A DNA stretch of 23,088 bases from an uncultured virus (IMG/VR IMGVR_UViG_3300028591_000105) (Duplodnaviria; Heunggongvirae; Uroviricota; Caudoviricetes), in IMG/VR virus record IMGVR_UViG_3300028591_000105; one strand, 5' to 3'. Below are positions 412 through 21,743 of the stretch, in pieces. The notes under the pieces were generated by a model. The model saw only the letters and a program-made list of their open reading frames with translations. It did not search any database and had not been told where the DNA came from. The translations under genes were made by a program, and so were the position numbers. Positions within the stretch are counted from its first letter, which is position 1. Every line of letters starts with the position of its first letter.

Positions 412-759
412 TTATACTTCTGTTTCTCCTATCTTTTCCTGAAAATTTATATAATAATCAAGTATCATTTCATATTTTTCAATAACCTCTTCCAGTGTAT
501 ATAACACTAAATCATCAAAAATGAAAATATTATCGACAGAATTTTCATCACTAACATCAAACTGATAAAACTCAACATCATCAAGTCCCGCTGATTCATT
601 GTACAGATAAAGTAAAAAACGTTCCTTATCATCATCAGTGCAGTCTGCAAATTTAAAAGGACGTTCCTCTAAAACTACCTCTTCATAAAAAGTATCAAAG
701 TCAAGTCCATTTTCTACCTCTACCCACTTGTTTTCCTTGTTAAATAACATTATTTTCAT
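412..759 (-). CDS. Highly acidic hypothetical protein (115 aa)
   Basis: ORF with GAAAGGA RBS, own promoter (811-839) and downstream hairpin GCGGGCAT/ATGCCCGT. Confidence 0.85.
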   Translation of the reverse strand: MKIMLFNKENKWVEVENGLDFDTFYEEVVLEERPFKFADCTDDDKERFLLYLYNESAGLDDVEFYQFDVSDENSVDNIFIFDDLVLYTLEEVIEKYEMILDYYINFQEKIGETEV

Positions 760-810
760 GGTATCAATTCCTTTCTGTTTTATAGAGTTTTCTCTCTTTT
801 CTTTAATACT

Positions 811-839
811 ATTATATCACACATAAGCCGTTTTGTCAA
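811..839 (-). promoter_or_regulatory. sigmaA-type promoter
   Basis: TTGACA-N17-TATAAT, TG extended -10; divergent from promoter at 1006. Confidence 0.85.
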
Positions 840-935
840 TGAATAAATTGTAAACTATTTATTAATACTTTTTGCCGCCCTACCACATTCTGTCAGGAAT
901 ACCAATTTTTGGTAGGGCGGCGCTTTGTAACTAAA

Positions 936-975
936 TTGTGAACATATACGATGGCAACGTCGTAAACATTTACAA
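936..975. repeat. 40-bp intergenic palindrome, copy 2
   Basis: TTGTGAACA-tat-ACGATG-gcaa-CGTCGT-aaa-CATTTACAA. Confidence 0.75.
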
Positions 976-1005
976 TTTAAATTCAAATTGTTTACATTTT
1001 ATTCA

Positions 1006-1034
1006 TTGACTTCTGCTCAGATATATGCTATAAT
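1006..1034 (+). promoter_or_regulatory. sigmaA-type promoter
   Basis: TTGACT-N17-TATAAT, TGn extended -10. Confidence 0.85.
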
Positions 1035-1110
1035 ATAATTACAGTAAGGGAGAAAAAACTCCACGAACTGAAAAAATCAAATCCCTATAAGGGTAGAAAG
1101 AGGTATTATT

Positions 1111-1629
1111 ATGAAGATGAACAGAGAGTATTTTAACAAGTTAGCAGACATTATGTTTAATGGTGACGATGAGGTTGACGTTCCCGAAAGTTTTCGTAAA
1201 GCAGTCATGCATGGCGTTATTAAGGGAGAGATAAAAAAGGTAGCAGAGGAACTTTATCCTAATCATAAGCTTCCCAGTATTAGTGCTTCAACCACAATTG
1301 CAAAGAAACTGGGAAGAAATGCTAATCAGGTAGCTTATTATCTTAGTGAGTTAATACATGAAGATGAAATTTTTAATTGGGAATGGGAGCCTACTAATAC
1401 TAAGTCTGCAAAGGTTAATGATTTACTTAACAAGACTTTTTCTGAAAAAAATGTTCAGTACATGGACGTTTATACACTCGCAGAGCTTTTTGATATGACT
1501 GTAAATTCTATCATTGCTTGTGTAAGTAATGCCAATAGTCGTTGTGAAAAGTATTTTATAGAAACTCTGGATTGCTACGATGAAAGAGGTAGACGTATGA
1601 TTTATGTAAAACATTATAAGAACAGATAA
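1111..1629 (+). CDS. Hypothetical protein, possibly with HTH-like segments
   Basis: 172-aa ORF, GAAAGAGG RBS; TIAKKLGRNANQVAYYLSEL and TLAELFDMTVNSI resemble HTH patterns. Confidence 0.8.
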   Translation: MKMNREYFNKLADIMFNGDDEVDVPESFRKAVMHGVIKGEIKKVAEELYPNHKLPSISASTTIAKKLGRNANQVAYYLSELIHEDEIFNWEWEPTNTKSAKVNDLLNKTFSEKNVQYMDVYTLAELFDMTVNSIIACVSNANSRCEKYFIETLDCYDERGRRMIYVKHYKNR

Positions 1630-1633
1630 TCTA

Positions 1634-1661
1634 AAGTGGGCGCAAATGCCCGCTTTCTTTT
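1634..1661 (+). terminator. Intrinsic terminator
   Basis: AAGTGGGCG-caaa-TGCCCGCTT followed by T-tract. Confidence 0.8.
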
Positions 1662-1811
1662 ATCCTAATTATTAACAAAATGTTACAAAATGCCGGCGCG
1701 CCATAATAGAAAATTCATAAAATAAATACAATTTATTGATGATTCTAAAGGTGAGATATGGTATAATATAATTACAGTAAAGGGCAAAACCTAAAGGAAG
1801 GAATTGATATT

Positions 1812-2183
1812 ATGGACTATGTAAAAATTGACGTATATATGGAGCAGATTAATTTTGATTATACCAATCTGTTTAAGATAAGAAGGCACAGAAGCTTTTC
1901 AAGTATGGAACTTCTTTATGCTCATCTTCTTTCATCGTGTATCTCAGTTGTTGAAATGGACACAACTAAGATTGAAGATGAAACGAATAAACTTAAAGAG
2001 AAATTAAAGAATAGAGCAATAGAAATTTTACAGCATAGATTTAAAGATTTTGAGCTTAAAGATATTGATTTTAATATAACTTTAAAACAAGCAAGTGAAC
2101 AAACTGCTGAATGGTGTGTCAAAAATTTAACTATTCCGCAGTTAGTTAATATGGGTATATCAATAGTAAATGGCGAAGATTAA
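1812..2183 (+). CDS. Hypothetical protein (123 aa)
   Basis: ORF with GGAAGGA RBS and upstream TGGTATAAT -10 at 1759-1767. Confidence 0.8.
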   Translation: MDYVKIDVYMEQINFDYTNLFKIRRHRSFSSMELLYAHLLSSCISVVEMDTTKIEDETNKLKEKLKNRAIEILQHRFKDFELKDIDFNITLKQASEQTAEWCVKNLTIPQLVNMGISIVNGED

Positions 2184-2196
2184 GGAGGAATTTGTT

Positions 2197-2466
2197 ATGA
2201 TGTCAACTGGAATAATTAGAAGAGTAGACGATTTGGGGCGAGTTGTAATACCAGGAGAGATTCGCCGCTCAATGGGAATAAGAGAGGGCGAGCCACTCGA
2301 AATTTATACTGACCCTGAAACAAATTCGGTGGTATTTAGAAAGCACATAAAAGTTAGTTTTTCGGAGGCTCTTTCAAATCTTATTGAAGATTATGAAATT
2401 GATGAGCAAGCGAAAAATATCATTTCTGAAATTGCCAAAATTTTAATAAAGGAAGATGAGGGGTAA
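2197..2466 (+). CDS. AbrB/SpoVT-family swapped-hairpin transcription regulator
   Basis: STGIIRRVDDLGRVVIPGEIRRSMGIREGEPLEIY is the AbrB/SpoVT N-terminal DNA-binding signature; AGGAGG RBS favours ATG 2197. Confidence 0.92.
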   Translation: MMSTGIIRRVDDLGRVVIPGEIRRSMGIREGEPLEIYTDPETNSVVFRKHIKVSFSEALSNLIEDYEIDEQAKNIISEIAKILIKEDEG

Positions 2467-2488
2467 TACCCCTCATTTTATTGCTAAT

Positions 2489-2528
2489 TTATGAACACTC
2501 GCGACGCCGCCGTCGTAAAGATTCACAC
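2489..2528. repeat. 40-bp intergenic palindrome, copy 3
   Basis: TTATGAACA-ctc-GCGACGCCGCCGTCGT-aaa-GATTCACAC; core identical to copy 1. Confidence 0.85.
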
Positions 2529-2558
2529 CCCTATAAAATAAAATTTACAATTTATTCA

Positions 2559-2587
2559 TTGACTTTTATTTCAAAATATGTTATAAT
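2559..2587 (+). promoter_or_regulatory. sigmaA-type promoter
   Basis: TTGACT-N17-TATAAT. Confidence 0.85.
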
Positions 2588-2644
2588 AAATATAGAAAAT
2601 AAGACAGATGATAAAGTCTTAAAAACATAGAAAGAGGTATTATT

Positions 2645-3091
2645 ATGATGTATGAAGTAACTTTTAAACTCCCTGAAAATGCAACTTTTACGACTAAGGT
2701 TATGGCAAAAGACAAGGATACGGCAGAAGACATTGCTATTGAGGCATTGATGAATAATATTACTACTACTGAAATCAAAGCGCAGAAAATTGACGGCAAC
2801 GCTATCCTCGATTGGGTAACGGATAATATGCCTAATACAAGCGAAATCCTTTTCCGTACTGATGATACCGCTATAATTTTTAGCACATACAACAAAGCAC
2901 AGATGACAGATTTGGCTAATCGTCTTTATTCTGCTTTTGAAGATTTTGCAAAAGATAATTACGATGAAGATTGCAACACCGCGGAAGGCTTGTTTAATTT
3001 CTGCATAACAAAAGAAGCGCCTGATTTTGGTGATGTTTGCTCTATCTATTATAAAGACGATTTTGACGGTAATTTTATCTTTGCATTTTAA
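2645..3091 (+). CDS. Acidic hypothetical protein (148 aa)
   Basis: ORF with GAAAGAGG RBS behind promoter 2559. Confidence 0.85.
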   Translation: MMYEVTFKLPENATFTTKVMAKDKDTAEDIAIEALMNNITTTEIKAQKIDGNAILDWVTDNMPNTSEILFRTDDTAIIFSTYNKAQMTDLANRLYSAFEDFAKDNYDEDCNTAEGLFNFCITKEAPDFGDVCSIYYKDDFDGNFIFAF

Positions 3092-3106
3092 AAGGAGTGA
3101 TATAAA

Positions 3107-3214
3107 ATGTTCATTCTCGGTTATATTCACGGTATAGTTAGTAAACTTTACTTTTGCAATTCGCCGCCCTTTGAAATGATAGTACAATATCTAATTTTAA
3201 AAGGAGTGATGTAA
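3107..3214 (+). CDS. Small hypothetical protein (35 aa)
   Basis: AAGGAG RBS then MFILGYIHGIVSKLYFCNSPPFEMIVQYLILKGVM*; below ORF-track cutoff. Confidence 0.5.
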   Translation: MFILGYIHGIVSKLYFCNSPPFEMIVQYLILKGVM

Positions 3215-3367
3215 ATGGTAACATTTTGTAAGCGTGACGGCAAGCGAATAAAGATTACCAAAAAGCAATTCAGAAATTATTTCCTCAAACTCAAAGCATT
3301 TAATGATGCTAAAAAGGAAATGAAAATAATTGAAGAATCCATACAAATGGAAAATAAGGGAGAGTAA
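3215..3367 (+). CDS. Small basic hypothetical protein (50 aa)
   Basis: AAGGAG RBS, MVTFCKRDGKRIKITKKQF...; stop lies in terminator loop. Confidence 0.65.
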   Translation: MVTFCKRDGKRIKITKKQFRNYFLKLKAFNDAKKEMKIIEESIQMENKGE

Positions 3368-3458
3368 TCTTCCTTATTTTATTAATAAAATGTTACCGCA
3401 CCGGCGCAGAGTGCCGTGAAGTTAATGCTTAGGTAAAGTAAAGTTTACAATTTATTCA

Positions 3459-3487
3459 TTGACAAACAAAAGAAAGTATGATATAAT
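3459..3487 (+). promoter_or_regulatory. sigmaA-type promoter
   Basis: TTGACA-N17-TATAAT. Confidence 0.85.
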
Positions 3488-3513
3488 AGAATTATAGAAA
3501 GGAAGTTGATATT

Positions 3514-3813
3514 ATGAAATGGAATTTTCTTGGAGTTGAGCCTGATTTTGATTATTTCAAGCCTATTGACTTTTGCGGCGACTGGCTTAATGTTATCATG
3601 AATCTTTCTGAGAAAAGTAAAAGAGAGGAGTTAAAAACATACGATACTCCATTTAAAGTCACTATTAGTGTTATAATTGTAATACTAATTATATTTATTT
3701 CTATCATTTTCTCCATTATCGCAATGATAATATATTATGGTACTTTTCCTATAAGATTTTTAGTAGATATTATTTGTGCATTATATGCAAAATTCTCAGA
3801 GATTTTTTATTAA
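3514..3813 (+). CDS. Small membrane protein (99 aa)
   Basis: Long hydrophobic segment VTISVIIVILIIFISIIFSIIAMIIYY; GAAAGGA RBS. Confidence 0.8.
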   Translation: MKWNFLGVEPDFDYFKPIDFCGDWLNVIMNLSEKSKREELKTYDTPFKVTISVIIVILIIFISIIFSIIAMIIYYGTFPIRFLVDIICALYAKFSEIFY

Positions 3814-3822
3814 CAATGTCAA

Positions 3823-3851
3823 TTGACAAATGCCCGCTAATATGATATAAT
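3823..3851 (+). promoter_or_regulatory. sigmaA-type promoter
   Basis: TTGACA-N17-TATAAT. Confidence 0.85.
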
Positions 3852-3877
3852 AATATATAGAAAGAGAGGTAATAACT

Positions 3878-4066
3878 ATGAGTGAATTTTTCAGATTAGT
3901 AGACTGGTATAACGGTTATGAAGATGAGGTATGCGTATCTAACTCTGCGGAGCGTATAATCCATGAGTATGACAAAAGAGTAGAGGACACGGACGGCGAA
4001 TGTAACCTTACTATCTATGATGACCAAGGAACAGAGTTACATCTATTTAAAGATGTGCGGGAGTAA
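3878..4066 (+). CDS. Small acidic hypothetical protein (62 aa)
   Basis: ORF with GAGAGG RBS, own promoter and terminator. Confidence 0.8.
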   Translation: MSEFFRLVDWYNGYEDEVCVSNSAERIIHEYDKRVEDTDGECNLTIYDDQGTELHLFKDVRE

Positions 4067-4187
4067 TCTCGCATTTTTTTTCTATAGCATATAGCCAAAG
4101 TATTATTAAATTATGAACAGCGCGCCGGCAGAGGTTAGCATATGCCAACCGCACAGAAAGTTCAGAAAACTTTGTGCAATTTACCTA

Positions 4188-4216
4188 TTGCAATTCTTTT
4201 TAAAATATGCTATAAT
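4188..4216 (+). promoter_or_regulatory. sigmaA-type promoter
   Basis: TTGCAA-N17-TATAAT preceded by AACTTTGTGCAA box. Confidence 0.8.
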
Positions 4217-4247
4217 ATATATAGAAAAATAGAAAGGACTTGATATA

Positions 4248-4679
4248 ATGAACAAAATCATCAACTTTGACCTTGACGGCACAATTGCTGACCTCTACGG
4301 TGTGACTAACTGGCTTGATTATCTTGAAAGAAGTGACCCTTATCCTTATGCAACCGCTAAACCCCTTGTCAATATGTCTGCACTTGCAAAAGTATTAAAC
4401 AAGCTCCGCCGCGAGGGGTGGACAGTTAATATAATATCATGGCTGTCAAAAACTTCCACCCCTGAATATGACAAAGCGGTTACAACTGCTAAAAAGAAGT
4501 GGTTAGGCAAACATTTGAAAAGTGTCAAGTTTGATAATATTTACATAGTGCCTTATGGTACACCTAAGTACACATTATCAAGTGGCATACTTTTTGATGA
4601 TGAAATAGGAAACCGCACCACATGGCAGGGGAAGGCGTATGACGTTGATAATATAATAGGTGTACTTCGTACACTTTAA
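4248..4679 (+). CDS. HAD-superfamily phosphatase, 5'(3')-deoxyribonucleotidase-like
   Basis: HAD motif I FDLDGT, motif II IIS, conserved K (AKKKWL) and motif IV LFDD. Confidence 0.8.
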   Translation: MNKIINFDLDGTIADLYGVTNWLDYLERSDPYPYATAKPLVNMSALAKVLNKLRREGWTVNIISWLSKTSTPEYDKAVTTAKKKWLGKHLKSVKFDNIYIVPYGTPKYTLSSGILFDDEIGNRTTWQGKAYDVDNIIGVLRTL

Positions 4680-4695
4680 GTAAAGGAGAGATAAT

Positions 4696-4860
4696 ATGAA
4701 ATTTACTGTTGAACTTTCTGCATTTGCAAGTTATGACGGACTTGAATATGACCATGAGCCAACCGCAGAGGAATTAGATGAATTTATTGACTTATTCATA
4801 AACGGTATACAAGATGGTTATTTTGATGTTGATATTCTTTGTTATGAGGAGGACGAGTAA
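4696..4860 (+). CDS. Small very acidic protein (54 aa)
   Basis: AAGGAG RBS; MKFTVELSAFASYDGLEYDHEPTAEELDEFIDLFINGIQDGYFDVDILCYEEDE*. Confidence 0.75.
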   Translation: MKFTVELSAFASYDGLEYDHEPTAEELDEFIDLFINGIQDGYFDVDILCYEEDE

Positions 4861-4906
4861 TCGTTCTCTTTTTATTAATTAGTTAAAAATTTTAATTATG
4901 TCCAGT

Positions 4907-4945
4907 TTACGAACACTGCGACGGTGCGCGTCGCACAGTTCATAG
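4907..4945. repeat. Intergenic palindrome, copy 4
   Basis: TTACGAAC-ac-TGCGACG-gtgcg-CGTCGCA-ca-GTTCATAG. Confidence 0.75.
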
Positions 4946-4996
4946 TCCTGCCGCGCTTCGTTCACAAACTTTTTACAATTAAATTTTCTAAACCTA

Positions 4997-5025
4997 TTGA
5001 CAAATCAAAGTATATGTGCTATAAT
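4997..5025 (+). promoter_or_regulatory. sigmaA-type promoter
   Basis: TTGACA-N17-TATAAT. Confidence 0.85.
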
Positions 5026-5067
5026 ATATATAGTAAAGGGGATAACCCAAAGAAAGGAAATGATACC

Positions 5068-5193
5068 ATGAAGAAGTCTCAGTACAAAAAGACTACAATT
5101 CATGTAGCACAGGCTTATACTTATATGAAGCCTTTTAAGAGGTACGCACATAAGACCACACGGCAGAGTTTAAAGAAATTTGATAAGGAGTGA
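5068..5193 (+). CDS. Small basic protein (41 aa)
   Basis: GAAAGGA RBS before ATG 5068; the track's longer 4924 start overlaps the promoter. Confidence 0.7.
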   Translation: MKKSQYKKTTIHVAQAYTYMKPFKRYAHKTTRQSLKKFDKE

Positions 5194-5197
5194 TAAT

Positions 5198-5452
5198 ATG
5201 ACATTTAAGGAAATCATGCAGAACATCATTTGTTGGACTGAAACTACTGAATGGATAGCAGATAACATTAGTTATCTATTCTGTAGTAGGGTAGGAAAAA
5301 TCAAAGATGAATACTACTCAGAATATCGAGAAAGAGGTAGCAATATAGGAATTATTCGACCAAATTTCTTTTTCAGAACTTATATGTTTAAGCCAAAAGA
5401 TAAAGATTATTCTTATCCAATATATCGTGGTTATGTAGAAAAGTTAAACTAA
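5198..5452 (+). CDS. Hypothetical protein (84 aa)
   Basis: AAGGAG RBS before ATG 5198; terminator hairpin at 5457-5479. Confidence 0.75.
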   Translation: MTFKEIMQNIICWTETTEWIADNISYLFCSRVGKIKDEYYSEYRERGSNIGIIRPNFFFRTYMFKPKDKDYSYPIYRGYVEKLN

Positions 5453-5493
5453 CTCAAAGCGGGCGTTAAGTCCGCTTTTCTATTGTTATTAAA

Positions 5494-5533
5494 TTGTGAA
5501 CATCGCGGCGCGGCACTGTCGCACCATTCATAC
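5494..5533. repeat. Intergenic palindrome, copy 5
   Basis: TTGTGAACA-tc-GCGGCG-cggcac-TGTCGC-acc-ATTCATAC. Confidence 0.7.
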
Positions 5534-5594
5534 TTTCGTCACATTTGCCGCAGGCGGCGTGAAATGTATCCTAACAAATTCATAAAAAGTTTAC

Positions 5595-5623
5595 TTGACA
5601 AATTAGTATATGTGTGCTATAAT
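5595..5623 (+). promoter_or_regulatory. sigmaA-type promoter
   Basis: TTGACA-N17-TATAAT. Confidence 0.85.
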
Positions 5624-5649
5624 AGAATCATAGAAAGGAAGGTGTTACT

Positions 5650-5850
5650 ATGAATTGGTACACATTAAAAGCAGAGTTTAACGAAAAATTTCCTAACTGG
5701 ACAATAAAAATTGACCCGCCTTGTATTTCTAATACTCGCTATACTCATTACTACTATGAAGTTCTTGCGAACGTATTAGGTAAGAAAAATTCTTACAAGG
5801 GTTATATTGATATTGACGAAGACCACAAACTCATCGTACTTCACAGATAA
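5650..5850 (+). CDS. Hypothetical protein (66 aa)
   Basis: ORF with GGAAGG RBS and own promoter. Confidence 0.75.
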   Translation: MNWYTLKAEFNEKFPNWTIKIDPPCISNTRYTHYYYEVLANVLGKKNSYKGYIDIDEDHKLIVLHR

Positions 5851-9025: not shown

Positions 9026-9110
9026 GCTTTAAAGTGCTAAAATTTCATGCTTTAAAGTGCTAAAATTTCATACTTTAAAGTGCTAAAATTTCATACTTTA
9101 AAGTGCTAAA
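9026..9110. repeat. 23-bp tandem repeat x3.7
   Basis: RCTTTAAAGTGCTAAAATTTCAT at 9026, 9049, 9072 and partial at 9095. Confidence 0.95.
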
Positions 9111-10400: not shown

Positions 10401-10510
10401 TAAAACCGACGAAATCTCACTTAGAAACCGACGAATTGTTACCTAAAAACCGACGAAACGTGACTTAAAAACCGATAAAATCTCACCTAAAAACCGACAA
10501 AATCTCACTA
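10401..10510. repeat. 22-bp iteron array x5 (putative replication origin)
   Basis: Consensus AAAAACCGACRAAATCTCACYT at exact 22-bp period (10401, 10423, 10445, 10467, 10489), followed by AT-rich tract. Confidence 0.9.
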
Positions 10511-10726
10511 TTTATATATTACTTTTTCCCAAAAAGTAATCAAAAAAGGTTTCGCGCTGCGCGCTCATGTTTCCTAAAAAATCCTACCCCTTATCAAAAA
10601 GCAACCAACCCCTCTTAAAAAAAAAGAGTGTCAAATAATTGACACCCCTTAATAAAACTAGCCCCTATTAAAAAATGAACCGACCCCTTATTGATAATTG
10701 TTTAAAGAATTTATTGACCCCGTTAT

Positions 10727-10843
10727 TTGACTAACTAATTAATTGACTAACTAATTAATTGACTAACTAATTAATTGACTAACTAATTAATTGACTAACT
10801 AATTAATTGACTAACTAATTAATTGACTAACTAATTAATTGAC
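10727..10843. repeat. Perfect 16-bp tandem repeat x7.3
   Basis: (TTGACTAACTAATTAA)x7 + TTGAC. Confidence 0.97.
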
Positions 10844-15202: not shown

Positions 15203-15399
15203 ATCTCGTCTTCTCCATAGAGCTTAATGGACTTAACTTTAATACCTTCCATCCACTCGTCATAGTTCATACCATTTGTCTTGCCGCTTTCCTGTGCTTG
15301 TTTGTAAGCTCTCATTCGATAGGTCTGCACTCCTTCCATTGAAGTAATTGCAAACTTTAATCCAACATGAGAATCTTTAACATAGTAAATAGTTATCAC
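15199..15399 (-). CDS. Hypothetical protein (66 aa)
   Basis: GTGA overlap with upstream gene, GAGG RBS. Confidence 0.75.
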   Translation of the reverse strand: MITIYYVKDSHVGLKFAITSMEGVQTYRMRAYKQAQESGKTNGMNYDEWMEGIKVKSIKLYGEDEI

Positions 15400-15938
15400 T
15401 GAAGTTCTACCTCCTCAATATAAATTTCCTCATATTGACCTTCGTCTTCTTTGATAGTAATAAGATTAATGTAGCCAGTGTCATCATCATAATCAAATGT
15501 AAAACGATTAAAAAACTCAATCTTAGCATCGTCAGATTCAAAAATGCCTTCGCTCATGTGAGCAGCAAGATAATCACCAAAAATAGCCATAACTTTATTA
15601 TGAGCCGCTGCCCTGTCCTTAAAAGCATAATGGTCGGTAGGCCAGTCAGGCATTTCATAAGCTACTATATAAATCTTCTCCATAGAATTTTCAATCCTTT
15701 CTTTATTTTTATTAGGAAACATTTGTATTTCTTCTATATTCTTAAAAAAGAAAAATTCAGTCCAATTACCAAAATCTACTTGATAATTATTAACATCTCC
15801 TGTGTATTGATAATAATGAGGACTAATATTATGTGAAGTAAGATATTTAACCATTGCCGCCCTAGCATCCATTTCATCTTCGTAAGTACCTATAAGTTCT
15901 GTTTTTTTATAGGTTCCGTATCTTAGCTCCCAGCTCAT
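15396..15938 (-). CDS. Acidic hypothetical protein (180 aa)
   Basis: ORF with GAGGA RBS, abuts upstream stop. Confidence 0.8.
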   Translation of the reverse strand: MSWELRYGTYKKTELIGTYEDEMDARAAMVKYLTSHNISPHYYQYTGDVNNYQVDFGNWTEFFFFKNIEEIQMFPNKNKERIENSMEKIYIVAYEMPDWPTDHYAFKDRAAAHNKVMAIFGDYLAAHMSEGIFESDDAKIEFFNRFTFDYDDDTGYINLITIKEDEGQYEEIYIEEVELQ

Positions 15939-16385: not shown

Positions 16386-16419
16386 TTTTATACCTCTTTT
16401 CTTTCTCTTTTCTATATAT

Positions 16420-16448
16420 ATTATACCATATTTTTTAAAAATTTTCAA
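16420..16448 (-). promoter_or_regulatory. sigmaA-type promoter
   Basis: TTGAAA-N17-TATAAT with TG. Confidence 0.8.
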
Positions 16449-16479
16449 TAAATTTATTGTTTAAATACTCTATAAATCC

Positions 16480-16563
16480 TACATTTCACGCCGCCGCCCC
16501 TGTCTCCGGAATCTTACTTGCTAGCTTTATTTTTCCAGAGGCGAGGTCGCGGCATGAAGTGTA
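16480..16563 (-). ncRNA. Long GC-rich hairpin at distal end of tRNA cluster
   Basis: TACACTTCATGCCGC...CTCTGGAA pairs with TTCCGGAG...GCGGCGTGAAATGTA. Confidence 0.45.
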
Positions 16564-16650
16564 ATATGAAAAACAGCCCACCACAAGGCAGGCTGTTTTA
16601 ACTATTTGACTTTAGCCCAAGTCAATAGGAGTGCTGAGCACGGAATTGCG

Positions 16651-16724
16651 TGGGAGATGGCAGACTCGAACTGCCAACCTCTCGCTTATCAGACGAGTGC
16701 GCTAACCTGTTGCGCCAATCTCCC
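16651..16724 (-). tRNA. tRNA-Ile(GAT)
   Basis: Cloverleaf; anticodon arm CTCGT-CT-GAT-AA-GCGAG; T loop TTCGAGT. Confidence 0.92.
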
Positions 16725-16730
16725 AAATAA

Positions 16731-16805
16731 TACCGCCGGAGAGACTCAAACTCTCACGCGGACTGGTTCGTAGCCAGTTGTCCTCACTAATTGGACGACA
16801 GCGGT
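16731..16805 (-). tRNA. tRNA-Arg(ACG)
   Basis: ACTGG-CT-ACG-AA-CCAGT; T loop variant TTTGAGT. Confidence 0.85.
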
Positions 16806-16809
16806 ATAG

Positions 16810-16883
16810 TACGGGATAAAGGACTCGAACCTTCAACTTACTGCTTAGAAGACAGTTGCTCTCTCCAATTGAGCTAATCCCGC
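16810..16883 (-). tRNA. tRNA-Arg(TCT)
   Basis: ACTGT-CT-TCT-AA-GCAGT; T loop TTCGAGT. Confidence 0.9.
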
Positions 16884-16945
16884 ATATCCCAACTTTAACC
16901 CAAGTTGGCAGGGTATTGACAATTGTAATCTAGGCTAAAGCCTAA

Positions 16946-17027
16946 TGGGAGCGGTTGGACTCGAACCAACGTAGACCGAAGCCACCGATTTTACAGACCG
17001 TTGCAATTGCCACTATGCGACACTCCC
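16946..17027 (-). tRNA. tRNA-Tyr(GTA)
   Basis: CGGT-CT-GTA-AA-ATCG with long variable arm. Confidence 0.9.
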
Positions 17028-17031
17028 ATAT

Positions 17032-17105
17032 TGGCAGGAGCGCTCAGAATTAAACTGAAGCCTGCGGTTTTGGAGACCGCCATTCTACCACTAAACTACG
17101 CCCCC
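17032..17105 (-). tRNA. tRNA-Trp(CCA)
   Basis: GCGGT-CT-CCA-AA-ACCGC; encoded 3' CCA; T loop variant TTTAATT. Confidence 0.88.
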
Positions 17106-17377
17106 ATGTCATCGAAGGAGCTACCTTCTAACGCTCGATGAGAAAGCGGTGTTTTCTATTAGGAAAAAAAACTACAAAGCCCCGTATTTCACCACCTATA
17201 CTCAAGGTTACTGCTCTCAGTCACAGCACTACTATTGAGACCGTCACGATTCTCAACTACCGTATTTCTATTCTTACAAGCTGAAATAAAGCCGGCATAT
17301 AGCTTAACGCCACAACATGCTTACGGACGACTTTAACTACGCTGTGCCGCCTCCAAGCTGATCGTTTGCAACCGATA

Positions 17378-17487
17378 GAGCTTTTTCAATTCTGCTCAGG
17401 AACACTACAATTAAGTAGATTTATGACTTATATTAGGGTCTAGTCACCAAAGACCTGTGGCAAGCAGTTTAATGTCTTACTCAGGAC
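17378..17487 (-). ncRNA. Three consecutive small H-type pseudoknot RNAs
   Basis: GTC-CTGAGTAA-GAC-ATTAAAC-TGCTT; GGTCT-TTGGTGACT-AGACC-CTAATATA-AGTCA; GTTC-CTGAGCA-GAAT-TGAAAAA-GCTC. Confidence 0.55.
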
Positions 17488-17502
17488 GAAGGTAGATGCA
17501 AG

Positions 17503-17573
17503 AGCTCCCACCCCGATTTGAACGGGGAGCAAGTGATTACAAATCACCTAGTTTACCATTAACCTACAGGAGC
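17503..17573 (-). tRNA. tRNA-Thr(TGT)
   Basis: GGTGA-TT-TGT-AA-TCACT; T arm CCCCG-TTCAAAT-CGGGG. Confidence 0.88.
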
Positions 17574-17788
17574 GTATGTCGTGGGCTGGGCTAAAGCACC
17601 ACTTAAATCCCACGACTGGTGATGATTATAGACACCTATATTGGGGGTGTCTGCCCTCTGGGAATAAAATTTTCGTTGCGCTCCGCAATTACTTACCCAA
17701 TTATTGTCCTCAACTCAATTAAGTCCCGCATGGACTATGTGGGCAGCCTTTTTACAACTTGTCGGTTGGATAGTTGTCAATCAATATC

Positions 17789-18405
17789 AGAACTTTCGTA
17801 CTCAACAACTTCATTAAGAACACACTATGAGTTTTTGTTCGCCCTACGGTCATAATATTCTCTGTTATTCGGTCATAGTGACGATAGGTCTGACCCCAAG
17901 GTAGCTAGCCCTGAAGTTCCTACCGCTGTCAAAGCACTAAAGGGAATTTGTTTACCCCAAACTTTCACCCAAACCATTCAGAATTATATCATCTTAGATT
18001 AAAATTTTCTTAAATTTTACTCTATATATTATAAAACTGTCCTCTTGGGCTACTCGCGCCGCCGTCTGGTTCCGCAGAGATTTCTCCCTACGTTATAGAG
18101 GAATCTTCCTTATTTTGCATTTCCTGCATTGGCTCACATCTTGCGGACGTGGTCTACAGGATTCTTCCCACTGGGCGTCTATTACGGAAGAAACCAGCTT
18201 AGCGCACTTTACAGACCATATTACTCCGTGCCACGACTTCTCTGTTGAGGATGCCCTCTTCCTAATAAACCTTAGATTTATCAGTAGCTGCCGTTTCAAG
18301 GTATCCCTATTACGACAACTAAGCAGTTCCGCCGCACCCATGCAAGGGTGGTTAGCCCCTCTGCACATGGATATAATATATTCTTAATGAAATTGTCAAG
18401 GTTCT
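17789..18405 (-). ncRNA. Large ornate ncRNA, ROOL-like (~620 nt)
   Basis: 27-bp terminal helix (18373-18399 with 17802-17828) in which every non-Watson-Crick pair is G.U on the minus strand; many internal hairpins; starts just after tRNA-Phe; size and tRNA-cluster context fit ROOL; family assignment from recalled motifs only. Confidence 0.7.
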
Positions 18406-18413
18406 TTGTAAAG

Positions 18414-18487
18414 TGGGTAAGACACGACTCGAACGTGCAACACATAGGGCTTCAACCTATTGCTCTTCCAATTAGAGCTACCTACCC
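18414..18487 (-). tRNA. tRNA-Phe(GAA)
   Basis: ATAGG-TT-GAA-GC-CCTAT; T loop TTCGAGT. Confidence 0.9.
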
Positions 18488-18656
18488 ATAATATACTATC
18501 GGCAATCCCAAACGATAGCTTTGATTACTTATATCTTGCAGGATACTTTTATCATTTGTACCACGCTAATACCCCTTCTGCAAAAGGGCGGTATCGGGAA
18601 TGGTTATCCACTTAGGTCTGCCGCATTTCCAAATCATGCGCGCCGCCCTGCACAAT

Positions 18657-18747
18657 TGGGCGACGAGGGACTCGAACCCTACACAGATTACTAAGTTCTT
18701 CGAGGAACTCTCTAACTCACTAAGTTTATCGACATTAGCAAGTCGGC
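18657..18747 (-). other. tRNA-like element: T arm and 3' end without a normal D/anticodon half
   Basis: 3' end AGGG-TTCGAGT-CCCT-CGTCGCCCA; upstream part does not fold into a canonical cloverleaf. Confidence 0.5.
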
Positions 18748-18818
18748 TAGTCTATGAAAGAATCGGACTTTCCTCTCATGGCTGAGAACCATGCGTTCTA
18801 CCACTAAACTAATAGACC
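18748..18818 (-). tRNA. tRNA-Glu(CTC)
   Basis: CATGG-TT-CTC-AG-CCATG; T loop variant TCCGATT. Confidence 0.82.
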
Positions 18819-18905
18819 ATAAGTTGCGAGGACTTAATTTCAGTTACCGTAATCCTCGCTATACGAGTAACAGAGCAAAGTTTCTTAGAAAACTTGCAAA
18901 GCCAA

Positions 18906-18987
18906 CGACTCTGACGGGGCTCGAACCCGCATATGTGTTTCCACTCGGAGAGACAGTCCGATGCCTAACCAATTAGACTACAGAGCC
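18906..18987 (-). tRNA. tRNA-Asp(GTC) with atypical long variable arm
   Basis: TCGGA-CT-GTC-TC-TCCGA, then GTG-GAAA-CAC hairpin; G73 discriminator. Confidence 0.82.
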
Positions 18988-19299
18988 ATACTATAAGCAG
19001 TTTACTGACAATACTTAGGTCATGTCTTATTTATACTCTTAGAACCGAGAGTAGGACAAGCTATTAGTTTTCTTAACTCAAACGTTTCGTACTATGTACC
19101 ATACTGTTGTATTGAAAAGAACTTGATAACTCTTTAAAGATAATCCTATACCTGATGCCCGCAAGGATGGTGCAACTCCGTCACTCCACTGTATATTGCC
19201 TGAAGCCAAAGCTCAGAACCTATTTTTTACAACCTTGGTTCTAGGTTGTGGAAGCTTTTCTGTAGGGAAAATGCCCATTCGATGGTTTACCAACCTTAG

Positions 19300-19372
19300 T
19301 ACACCAGACAAGACTTGAACTTGCACTCTCACAGATTAAGAATCTGTTGTTTTCCCATTAAACTACTGGTGC
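19300..19372 (-). tRNA. tRNA-Lys(CTT)
   Basis: ACAGA-TT-CTT-AA-TCTGT; T loop TTCAAGT. Confidence 0.88.
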
Positions 19373-19525
19373 TTATAAAAATTAATAGACAGGCAGTGAC
19401 TCGTCGTGTGGGTGTACCTCGCTTAATAGCCTACTCTCGTTGTCTGCACTTACGACTAACGTACTTACGATTACGCTTTCAATTTCCTCTATTAATTTTT
19501 TATTTCTTTTTTATTTTCTATATAT

Positions 19526-19554
19526 ATTATACCATAAAATTTAAGAAATTTCAA
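19526..19554 (-). promoter_or_regulatory. sigmaA-type promoter heading the tRNA/ncRNA cluster
   Basis: TTGAAA-N17-TATAAT with TG; no RBS-ATG downstream. Confidence 0.8.
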
Positions 19555-19581
19555 ATAATTTATTGTTTTACCCTTAACAAA

Positions 19582-19804
19582 GGGTGCGGCATTTATTTTA
19601 AACTAACGAGTACCGCATCGTTATGTCCGAGGCACGTTCACAATTTAAGTCTGCCGCTCTCGCTTACTCAGACTAGCAACTACGATGCTAAGCGCTGTTC
19701 TTTATCGAAACCAAGCAGCGAACGGTTCTACTCACACGAAACTAGCGAACTATCTTTTACACCAAAATAGTTAAACGGTTACTGTGTCGCAGCACTGCGC
19801 ACCC
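19582..19804 (-). ncRNA. Candidate ~220-nt multi-stem RNA
   Basis: Closing stem GGGTGCG/CGCACCC; internal stems AACTAT/ATAGTT, CGCTG/CAGCG, GCATCGT/ACGATGC, AGTCTG/CAGACT. Confidence 0.55.
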
Positions 19805-19849
19805 ATAGTCTTTATTTATCCTTGCGTGGATGACCTACCAAGGCTCACC

Positions 19850-20170
19850 TTAAATATCCTTATCAAGTTCTGTAGAATAAGTACACTCATAAACTTCATG
19901 CTTTAAGAAGTTGCCATCTTTGTCGTAAGTATCGCACCAGTTATAAACATAGCACGAAATATCAAGGATATTATGCTCACTATCATATTTATAATAAGGT
20001 GAGTAAGAGATAAGTTCTGTTCCTGTTGAACCATCTTCAAGAGTAGTTTCTCTTGTGAAGTAAGGTGCATTTTCCTTATCAAGAAGAGCAGAACATCTTT
20101 CAAGGTCATTAGACATAAAAGTAAATTTCATTCCGTTATTAGTCGCCGACCAATTGTTTATCTTTTCCAT
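19850..20170 (-). CDS. Hypothetical protein (106 aa)
   Basis: GAAAGGA RBS. Confidence 0.8.
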   Translation of the reverse strand: MEKINNWSATNNGMKFTFMSNDLERCSALLDKENAPYFTRETTLEDGSTGTELISYSPYYKYDSEHNILDISCYVYNWCDTYDKDGNFLKHEVYECTYSTELDKDI

Positions 20171-20184
20171 AAGTCTTTCCTTTC

Positions 20185-20592
20185 TTAATATCTCTCATAA
20201 ATGTTATTAAGTGAAGTATAAATATTCACTCCATCACTAACTACAAAACTCATAGTAATTACGTCAAGTCCACAACTTTCAAAAGCAGTATCTTCGACAT
20301 ATTCGAGGACAGTAAAACCGTAGTGTTCCATAAGAGCTTCAAAGAAATCCTGAAACTCAAACACATAGGTGTCGTCATGTTCGTAGTAAATATACCAAGT
20401 ATCCTCTGCCGGCTTAAAGAAAGTTTTTGCTATCTGACCCCATGAATAGTCCCAAAAGAACTCATTTAAGTCCTCAGAATCAAGTTCCGCATTGGTACCC
20501 ATAGTCTGAAAGAGTTTTTCAAGGTCAGTAAAAAAATTTGGAGAATAACCCATATTATGAAGTTTTATCTTTGAAATTTCATATACATTCAT
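20185..20592 (-). CDS. Acidic, aromatic-rich hypothetical protein (135 aa)
   Basis: GAAAGGA RBS; promoter 20623-20651. Confidence 0.82.
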   Translation of the reverse strand: MNVYEISKIKLHNMGYSPNFFTDLEKLFQTMGTNAELDSEDLNEFFWDYSWGQIAKTFFKPAEDTWYIYYEHDDTYVFEFQDFFEALMEHYGFTVLEYVEDTAFESCGLDVITMSFVVSDGVNIYTSLNNIYERY

Positions 20593-21346: not shown

Positions 21347-21379
21347 ATTCTACCTCCTATTTATACATACGTTAGCTAG

Positions 21380-21743
21380 TGGAGAAGAGGGGAATCGAAC
21401 CCCTGTCCACAAAATCTCCAGCATACTTTCTACAAGGTTAGCTACGTCATTTTATCTTTCCTCGCCCTTCGCCGGCGCAGCAAACAAAAGGTTACGTCAA
21501 CTCACTTATACTTGTTGCATTGAGTAAGTACAACAATGAATAGCTTCTATATATAAATCAAAGATTACTGCAAATTGAAACTATCAGAACAAAGCAAATA
21601 ATCTTAGTGCCGACATAGCGCCGGCGCAGCCTTATGCTGCTAAAGTATTAACGTCGTTGTTTAATTTATAAATGCTTCGTAAGGTGATTGCCTACCCCTT
21701 GCTTATATACCTTATAATTCCATGTCGAAACCAATACTTCCCC
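21380..21743 (-). ncRNA. ssrA: tmRNA
   Basis: 5' GGGGAAGTATTGGTTTCGAC; 3' GGACAGGGGTTCGATTCCCCTCTTCTCCA; G3.U70 alanine identity pair; tag frame ...AAC GAC GTT AAT ACT TTA GCA GCA TAA (NDVNTLAA). Confidence 0.93.

Follow-up and report, generated by a model that had tools for sequence, protein, structure and literature searches.

A non-coding operon occupies positions 16569-19554 on the minus strand of a 23,088-nucleotide (nt) stretch of DNA, hereafter the window, from an uncultured ruminant-gut phage (IMG/VR record IMGVR_UViG_3300028591_000105). It is composed of a promoter-like site, ten transfer RNA (tRNA) genes, a ROOL RNA and a terminator-like hairpin. The original prediction located about eight small H-type pseudoknots in the spacers between these RNAs and took them for possible decoys that mimic type III antitoxins. 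Comparative analysis indicates that two of those elements, B1 and B2 (family B), are members of a pseudoknot family that is real, widespread among mobile elements and uncatalogued, and that the supposed arsenal of eight antitoxin mimics is absent. The role proposed here for family B, a boundary or 3'-end-cap module with a conserved binding partner, is put forward with confidence evenly divided for and against, on the grounds of sequence and position; for the end-cap function taken alone the confidence is much less.

Structure and covariation of family B

The consensus of family B is CCCUG-N5-UUGGGUUAAA-N'5, that is, CCC-UG-[N5-UU]-GGG-UUA-[AA-N'5]-R, and occupies ~27 nt. Stem 1 has 3 base pairs (bp), formed by CCC with the GGG located at the start of the hairpin loop, and is followed by the 2-nt linker UG. 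Stem 2 is a 7-bp hairpin with the loop GGGUUA, in which the five outer pairs are free and the two inner U-A pairs are fixed. The 2-nt loop crosses stem 2 and the 3-nt loop crosses stem 1; the fold is a sterically ordinary, very compact H-type pseudoknot. In the window the family was singled out not by sequence similarity but by two perfect 7-bp hairpins placed in one register with different outer pairs (Table 1). Model R1 scores B2 at 42.4 bits (E 1.2e-7) and B1, the divergent copy, at 35.6 bits (E 5e-6), matches that are partly by construction, since both copies are among the 28 sequences from which the model was built.

Further members were collected with pattern scans. The 14-nt core is found in at least 120 loci of IMG/VR, among which seven have three further Watson-Crick pairs; CCCTG lies three bases upstream in four of these seven and in none of the other core loci listed, and three of the four are positioned between tRNA genes. 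The pattern CCCTG-N3-core gave 13 viral loci in IMG/VR, with N3 and N'3 complementary in all 12 that could be scored (the 13th is cut by the contig end), and 21 loci in the one-genome-per-species bacterial and archaeal contigs, 18 with a Watson-Crick stem, two with a G-U pair and one with a mismatch. When the inner stem positions were freed, the 59 scorable loci were distributed bimodally: 21 had 5/5 pairs, 36 had 0-3, and the two with 4/5, about the chance expectation, were left out of the alignment. Among these freed-stem loci the new inner pairs are G-C, C-G, G-U and U-A. Freeing the first loop G added two copies, L215 and L217, both 7 nt before tRNA-Glu in contigs of the two closest ROOL relatives, in which CCC...GGG is replaced by CCG...CGG. 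The same swap, from C6-G16 to G6-C16, is carried by a degenerate copy, L026, located 6 nt before tRNA-Gly.

The resulting alignment (alignment A3, 37 distinct rows and ten pairs) contains standard pairs in 369 of its 370 cells, and six of the ten pairs change on both sides, values that none of 500 shuffles reached; if the partners are slid out of register, pairing falls to 51-52%. Within stem 2, five of the seven pairs change on both sides and 99.6% of the cells pair. Stem 1 shows C6-G16 in 35 rows and G6-C16 in two, to which the L026 variant can be added, together with one U-G and no unpaired cell. Because five cells are G-U or U-G and none is A-C, the alignment points to the gene-sense strand as the one on which family B acts. 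Hence covariation is found in stem 1 as well as in stem 2, as expected of an H-type pseudoknot, and the pseudoknot claimed for family B in the original prediction is genuine and conserved.

Family B is an RNA motif absent from Rfam. None of the Rfam searches returned a family matching it; that of a 121-nt window round a bacterial copy at E ≤ 10 gave only six noise matches, with E of at least 1.2, and the known riboswitch and ribozyme pseudoknots of Rfam 15 (preQ1, SAM-II/V, guanidine-III, fluoride, pistol, twister and others) gave no match. The core string was not found in the literature searched, which included the supplement of the motif catalogue PMC10690425 in part and not that of PMC5737381, and these may list the motif unnamed.

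Two catalogued RNAs invite comparison. STAXI (RF01728) is, in the available part of PMC2864571, a small pseudoknot on mobile DNA near SSB, integrase and antirestriction or DNA-handling genes, for which the question of RNA versus single-stranded DNA likewise arises. It is described there as enterobacterial, with 2-3 tandem repeats and often UUCG loops, whereas family B is single-copy, has a GGGUUA loop and occurs in low- and high-GC phages and in metagenome-assembled genomes (MAGs) of Gammaproteobacteria, Nitrospira and the Candidate Phyla Radiation (CPR); no Rfam search gave a match of RF01728 to family B. The other, ROOL (RF03087), a phage and prophage RNA of unknown function for which RNA-only assemblies have been reported (10.1101/2024.12.08.627333, in the part available), shares the operon with family B and is flanked by tRNAs. 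ROOL measures ~580 nt versus ~27 nt, and family B is absent from the other 42 ROOL loci save for the degenerate L026 copy. A likeness of the family B core to the conserved ROOL segment 17961-17974 was rejected: it has three mismatches, and at that threshold the window contains eight matches versus 4.8 expected, which is chance.

Distribution and possible function of family B

The family comprises 41 distinct members in addition to B1 and the L026 variant, and nothing aligns in the flanks outside the motif. Its carriers are a rumen Firmicutes-type phage, a phi29-like phage, a 467-kilobase (kb) megaphage, high-GC phages, and islands of Gammaproteobacteria, Nitrospira and a CPR bacterium. A tRNA starts 4-8 nt after the motif in eight of the 21 viral and window members (Ser, His in two, Pro, Met, Glu in two, Arg), and a U run follows it in nine of the 41 members. 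The viral neighbours are otherwise mutually unrelated: the motif is placed between p6-like and SSB genes in the phi29-like contig, ahead of a DNA methylase, ahead of an HD hydrolase and downstream of an intron-bearing tRNA in the 467-kb contig, and ahead of a terminator facing a replication gene. In the MAGs, which are mostly gammaproteobacterial but include Nitrospira, a Rhodothermaceae and a CPR genome, most loci examined carry the motif after genes for RadC (PF04002) and DUF6573 (PF20213) and a G+C-rich hairpin, with an integrase gene near several of them; no mention of DUF6573 was found in the literature. A loose motif pattern matched 113 of 401 genomes of the class of G006, the reversed-pattern control being of similar order; in this noisy listing no stem-forming copy other than that of G006 was noticed by eye.

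Some of these loci hold other structured elements. The islands L187-L204 have a covarying G+C-rich hairpin ~30 nt upstream of the motif, a linker AYCUUGY, and downstream a tract rich in pyrimidines (in many of them C+U makes up 65-85% of 20 nt), and the island form of family B may be a longer RNA. In the 467-kb viral contig a group I intron (L169:285-483; RF00028, 75.7 bits) lies beside a tRNA-like T-arm and acceptor end (~520-560), ~45 nt before the pseudoknot copy. Two phage tRNA arrays with the pseudoknot contain matches below threshold, one to a hepatitis delta virus-like ribozyme (L166:214-308, minus strand; 34.2 bits, E 0.002) and one to YrlA (L167:203-259, minus strand; 31 bits, E 0.0014).

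Bacterial tRNA processing relies on RNase Z and RNase P, which cut at the tRNA ends. From its anatomy the array of the window would be a single transcription unit, so that tRNA-end cuts would release the spacers. Both copies are located at unit boundaries: B2, 5 nt before tRNA-Arg, is inside a 61-nt spacer that opens with a small hairpin right after tRNA-Tyr, and B1 is between the last tRNA and the terminator. With both enzymes cutting, the pseudoknot would come to lie at the 3' end of a freed spacer RNA of ~61 nt (B2) or in a short tail RNA of ~80 nt (B1), and the tail past the pseudoknot would be too short to give a 3' exonuclease a hold; where a U run follows the motif, termination would take the place of the tRNA-end cuts. 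The most likely role is that of a compact end cap and recognition module, which would keep 3' exonucleases out and have a conserved binding partner. Such a cap with its partner would account for loops and a helix junction that stay invariant beside covarying stems, and this invariance suggests that something reads the motif. The nuclease-blocking element that the original prediction gave as its alternative comes close to what is our leading guess for family B.

Several points weigh against an end cap. A purely protective role has no need of invariant loops. The contexts are mixed, since neither a tRNA nor a U run is downstream in 24 of the 41 members, and several members are intergenic, 20-55 nt before the start of an open reading frame (ORF), as an element of a 5' untranslated region would be. 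In folding energy the hairpin of B2 is unremarkable (z -0.45; 90 of 300 shuffles fold as well). The pseudoknot helix depends on one kind of compensatory change in one phage lineage (two loci in one contig and one in a related contig), much of the invariance was imposed by the fixed parts of the search patterns, and eight rows of alignment A3, taken from the freed-stem scan, were selected for complete pairing, the bimodal count being the unbiased evidence. Transcription, excision and stability of the motif are predictions from its sequence and position.

Family B might act in trans instead, as an anti-defence decoy, for instance a mimic of the tRNA acceptor arm that occupies a conserved host nuclease or nucleotidyltransferase working on tRNA ends, which is considered unlikely. 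The motif travels with mobile elements across phyla, among phage tRNAs and beside RadC and DUF6573 on integrase-carrying islands, and the invariant loops and junction suggest a specific partner here too. Its geometry recalls the acceptor stem of viral valyl tRNA-like structures of the turnip yellow mosaic virus (TYMV) type, H-type folds in which, in the available part of PMC7749636, a 3-bp helix is stacked on one of 5-6 bp and the 3' strand runs into a discriminator-like purine. The corresponding elements of family B are a 3-bp G-C helix on a 7-bp helix and a purine as the next base (column 29) in 35 of the 37 rows, and the bacterial copies often have CC or CU as the following bases. We take this likeness to be geometric only, which counts against a decoy. 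The viral structures stand at a genomic 3' end and have CC(A) and T, anticodon and D arms (PMC7749636, same part), whereas family B lies internally, lacks a free 3' CCA end and shows no mimic of those arms, none being conserved in its unalignable flanks. The candidate partner is also only hypothetical, nothing links family B to any defence system, and the motif was single-copy in all five viral records searched. In its broadest form, with the 27-nt pseudoknot as a portable RNA device of phages and integrative islands across phyla, a trans decoy for one conserved cellular or defence protein (e.g. a tRNA acceptor-end enzyme) freed by tRNA-end processing or by termination, the proposal is rather less probable still. 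Were it true, the idea of a decoy released by tRNA processing would have been right in kind for family B, though not via type III systems.

The same tRNA-like geometry, with the position at gene and tRNA boundaries, could make family B a processing signal, a minimal helix where RNase P or some other enzyme of tRNA ends would be brought in to cut the polycistronic RNA of the mobile element. Among 18 bacterial rows, 13 have RCC or RCU after the stem, and bacterial RNase P does cleave some non-tRNA hairpin substrates as well as the TYMV tRNA-like structure. However, RNase P substrates need a shape and not an invariant loop sequence, cleavage at the predicted position would break the pseudoknot up, and such a signal would be redundant 4-8 nt before a tRNA; this role is regarded as doubtful. 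A cis-regulatory pseudoknot that senses a ligand or protein, or tunes a terminator, and thus controls the downstream unit seems slightly more improbable than that. In its favour are the members lying a short distance before ORF starts, the terminator-like score of the motif's own hairpin with its pyrimidine- or U-rich tail in 8 of 26 loci, the terminators downstream of B1 and L165, and the size of the smallest known riboswitch pseudoknots, which is about that of family B. Yet the downstream genes are unrelated (SSB, HD hydrolase, DNA methylase, tRNAs), a spacing of 4-8 nt before a tRNA cannot fit an expression platform, and Rfam holds no riboswitch family that matches.

A role as single-stranded DNA, in which the motif would fold into a site for proteins of replication, transfer or recombination, was considered for STAXI by Weinberg and colleagues (PMC2864571, in the part available), and the STAXI-like context of family B (SSB, integrase and replication genes, islands) would agree with it. 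This is very improbable for family B, given that the motif always has the orientation of the genes and tRNAs that flank it, contains G-U pairs and no A-C, and is embedded in tRNA transcripts.

The remaining candidates and the antitoxin-mimic reading

The nine strings quoted in the original prediction are all present on the minus strand at the positions it gave, and of these proposed mini-pseudoknots only family B was shown to be real. H-type arrangements were enumerated in the 1521 nt of spacers and compared with dinucleotide shuffles. Under loose settings like those of the prediction (stems of at least 3 and at least 4 bp, G-U allowed, span of at most 45 nt) 2923 arrangements were counted versus 2943±205 in shuffles, and 174 of 300 shuffles reached the observed number. 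With Watson-Crick stems the counts were 121 versus 85.8±18.1 for 4+4 bp (11/300) and 7 versus 4.0±2.5 for 5+5 bp (48/300), and an arrangement as good as the best one (candidate C, 7+6 bp) was present once versus 0.08 times in shuffles (24/300). The spacers therefore hold 'about eight H-type pseudoknots' at a frequency that, for the set, is no higher than in shuffled sequence. Folding of whole spacers was no better than that of shuffles either (z +0.29, +0.70, -1.58 and -0.37).

Grouping of the candidates into families by shared sequence did not survive the same comparison. In local alignments between spacers the top score was 23, for A1-A2 and B1-B2 alike, with 21 for C-F, whereas the top score in shuffles averaged 22.3±2.2 and 83 of 200 shuffles reached 23. 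All three similarities are hence at chance level, and family B is real on other evidence, including the covariation (TTG/CAA versus CCA/TGG) noted in the prediction. The word GGYTAAAGY has four matches versus 0.89 expected, a number reached by 2 of 100 shuffles, but it was picked post hoc and is present on both strands. Motifs A, B and C/F were searched for in 42 further ROOL-tRNA loci from IMG/VR (241,511 bases when the window is counted in), where one chance C/F match was found; the 10-mer common to A1 and A2 is absent from them.

Closer relatives, contigs at ~90-97% identity from the DNA runs X2, X3 and X5 compared by their listed variants, are too close to be informative: among the variants listed (40 of 142 rows, and for indels 12 of 43), no informative change falls in the stems of A, C, D, E or F. 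The sole variant in A2 among those listed, at 19005, is in a loop. Candidate C, the best Watson-Crick pseudoknot of the spacers, has two variants in these relatives: A>G at 19249, by which an A-U pair becomes G-U, and one extra nucleotide in the 3' strand of stem 1. They are compatible with the fold and not compensatory, and C is possibly a pseudoknot, which is not established. The segment 17628-17803, which contains F, is replaced by 76 other bases in the X2 and X5 contigs. The last 45 nt before tRNA-Trp, where E is located, fold with z -1.03, a value reached by 49 of 300 shuffles. The best reading of candidates A, D, E and F is that they are hairpins due to chance or specific to a lineage.

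Strong hairpins were observed at other spacer ends. One of 8 bp (17578-17613, minus strand; z -3.41) ends 4 nt before tRNA-Thr and another, of 7 bp with an extension (18826-18859, minus strand; z -3.15), ends 6 nt before tRNA-Glu; together with B2 they suggest that spacers tend to close with structure just before the next tRNA. A hairpin ahead of every tRNA was nevertheless rejected as a general rule, since only three of seven ends are exceptional, those of the Thr and Glu hairpins and that of B1, whose last 45 nt fold with z -2.38 (9 of 300 shuffles reach it).

The claim that the eight elements form a library mimicking type III antitoxins (ToxI-, CptI- or TenpI-like), freed by tRNA processing to neutralise abortive-infection RNases, is scarcely credible. 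It had in its favour that type III antitoxins are small pseudoknots and that a phage-borne RNA mimic, the pseudo-ToxI of phiTE, has a precedent (PMC3401426 and PMC3475682, in the parts available), that tRNA-end cuts would free the spacers, and that family B is a true pseudoknot. Type III antitoxins, in Table 2 of PMC3401426, are tandem arrays with 1.9-5.6 repeats of 31-62 nt ahead of a terminator and a toxin (endoribonuclease) gene, and the phiTE mimic was identified, in the available part of PMC3475682, through sequence similarity to ToxI and through tandem repetition and repeat expansion. None of this holds in the window. Tandem Repeats Finder (minimum score 30, 16450-19450) gave only 17956-17980 (2 x 12 nt), inside ROOL, and thus no tandem repeat in the spacers; Rfam searched over 16400-19900 at E ≤ 10 returned only tRNA, ROOL and six noise matches, which antitoxin families it holds not having been checked; and none of the 22 ORFs scanned had a toxin-like Pfam match. 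The reading fails because tandem repeats, an Rfam antitoxin match and a toxin gene are all missing. In addition, the candidates as a set do not exceed chance, the 42 ROOL-tRNA loci lack motifs A and C/F, and family B, single-copy and found across phyla, is a poor fit to the mimic of one cognate antitoxin. The pseudoknot frequency of shuffled sequence had been named in the original prediction as a ground for refutation, and by its own measures the mimic reading is largely refuted. Mini-pseudoknots with stems of 3-5 bp found by hand arise by the thousands per 1.5 kb by chance, and those with neither repeats nor conservation should not be taken for antitoxin mimics.

The operon, the rest of the window and the meaning of family B

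The features of the window are collected in Table 1. Read 5' to 3' on the minus strand, the order of the tRNAs is Lys-CTT, Asp, Glu-CTC, Phe, [ROOL], Thr-TGT, Trp, Tyr, Arg-TCT, Arg-ACG and Ile-GAT. The promoter match, ~150 nt upstream of tRNA-Lys, is probably the start of the array transcript, as judged from its consensus. The terminator-like hairpin was missing from the consensus scan that gave the promoter match and comes from reading the sequence by eye.

Table 1. Positions of the RNA elements, candidate structures and other features in the window
Feature	Position	Strand	Remarks
B2 (family B, copy 2)	16886..16916	-	AUA-CCC-UG-CCAACUU-GGG-UUA-AAGUUGG-GAU; ends 5 nt before the 5' end of tRNA-Arg(TCT)
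B1 (family B, copy 1, divergent)	16603..16633	-	UCC-UA-UUGACUU-GGG-CUA-AAGUCAA; 19 nt after tRNA-Ile, ~6 nt before the terminator hairpin
Ten tRNA genes	16650..19372	-	ARAGORN; Rfam tRNA model 46.8-68.4 bits
ROOL RNA, full length	17810..18394	-	RF03087, 246.7 bits versus gathering score 99.1, model positions 1-574; inside the span of the prediction
Sigma-70-type promoter	19526..19554	-	TTGAAA, 17 nt, TATAAT with upstream TG; 11/12 consensus positions; consensus match only
Terminator-like hairpin	16569..16599	-	9 bp and U run, CAGCCUGCC-UUGU-GGUGGGCUG-UUUUU; after tRNA-Ile
Candidate A1	17462..17487	-	Grouped as family A with A2 (18995-19022) and A3 (17378-17403) in the prediction; no support beyond chance
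Candidate C	19215..19249	-	ACAACCU-AGAACC-A-AGGUUGU-AAAAAAUA-GGUUCU, 7+6 bp
Candidate D	17424..17455	-	5+5 bp pseudoknot-compatible string; no support beyond chance
Candidate E	17109..17148	-	Bulged hairpin, ends 3 nt before tRNA-Trp; not exceptional
Candidate F	17744..17777	-	6-bp hairpin downstream of ROOL; not conserved
Tandem repeat	9027-9110		23 nt x 3.7
Tandem repeat	10402-10509		22 nt x 4.9
Tandem repeat	10723-10843		16 nt x 7.6
Phage-borne transfer-messenger RNA	21377-21743	-	RF00023, 114.5 bits; ARAGORN (21379-21743) tag peptide AIHCCTYSMQQV*
MazE/AbrB-type antitoxin-like gene	2170-2466	+	PF04014, E 3e-8; phrog_4681, E 1e-17

The window has a G+C content of ~33%, and its ORFs are mostly orphans, few having matches to phage families. 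The public sequencing runs that contain the stretch are sheep and bovine gut metagenomes. No close relative was found among cultured phages, of which only the tRNAs match, and the proteins encoded at 15396-15938 and 20185-20592, used as queries, had no relative in the IMG/VR viral contigs or in the metagenome contigs of the Joint Genome Institute (JGI). An 18-mer from the Thr-Trp spacer, tried as a hook for relatives, gave two matches, both unrelated and due to chance, and the pattern of the Trp/Tyr junction had no match in the JGI metagenome contigs.

Relaxed settings of ARAGORN added three calls that are not credible, a tRNA-Thr(AGT)-like one at ~17144-17230 and two with implausible introns. 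At 18655-18745 (minus strand) the array contains a tRNA-like 3' half, with a GGTTCGAGTCC T-arm and an acceptor strand, that repeats the 3' ends of the real tRNAs; it was called neither by ARAGORN nor by the Rfam tRNA model at E ≤ 10, and is probably a tRNA relic. Within the Thr-Trp spacer, 17181-17473 (minus strand) is covered in the metatranscriptome run X4 by an identical 306-nt contig with 0 differences and a depth of 56.9, versus 2.6-5.2 for identical contigs over ROOL and 18573-18730, contig depth being a weak measure that cannot rank genes and RNA libraries being able to contain DNA. It is possibly a candidate for an abundant or stable RNA of ~300 nt, without an Rfam match; the whole Thr-Trp spacer folds with z +0.29 relative to shuffles. 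No X4 contig covers B1 or B2, from which no conclusion is drawn.

Beyond the operon, a promoter-like element of ~40-60 nt at 16400-16466 (minus strand), with TTGAAA, 17 nt and TATAAT with TG at 16448-16420, has several matches at 82-91% identity in each of many ROOL-phage loci and a very high summed contig depth in sequencing runs (640-5686), and looks like a multi-copy conserved phage promoter or leader. Between 8500 and 11700, ~3 kb with almost no ORF of at least 50 amino acids is dense in tandem repeat arrays and lies near a change of sign of the GC skew; this is possibly an origin or iteron region. No toxin partner for the MazE/AbrB-type gene was obvious among the ORFs scanned.

In an RNA of 27 nt, constant loops and a constant helix junction beside covarying stems make it likely that there is a specific partner of wide occurrence, and the small size of family B suits direct biochemistry. 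Should family B cap or mark RNA ends, it would be a compact addition to the logic by which tRNAs punctuate the non-coding operons of phages. If it is a decoy, it would represent a new RNA-based counter-defence common to phages and to conjugative and integrative elements.

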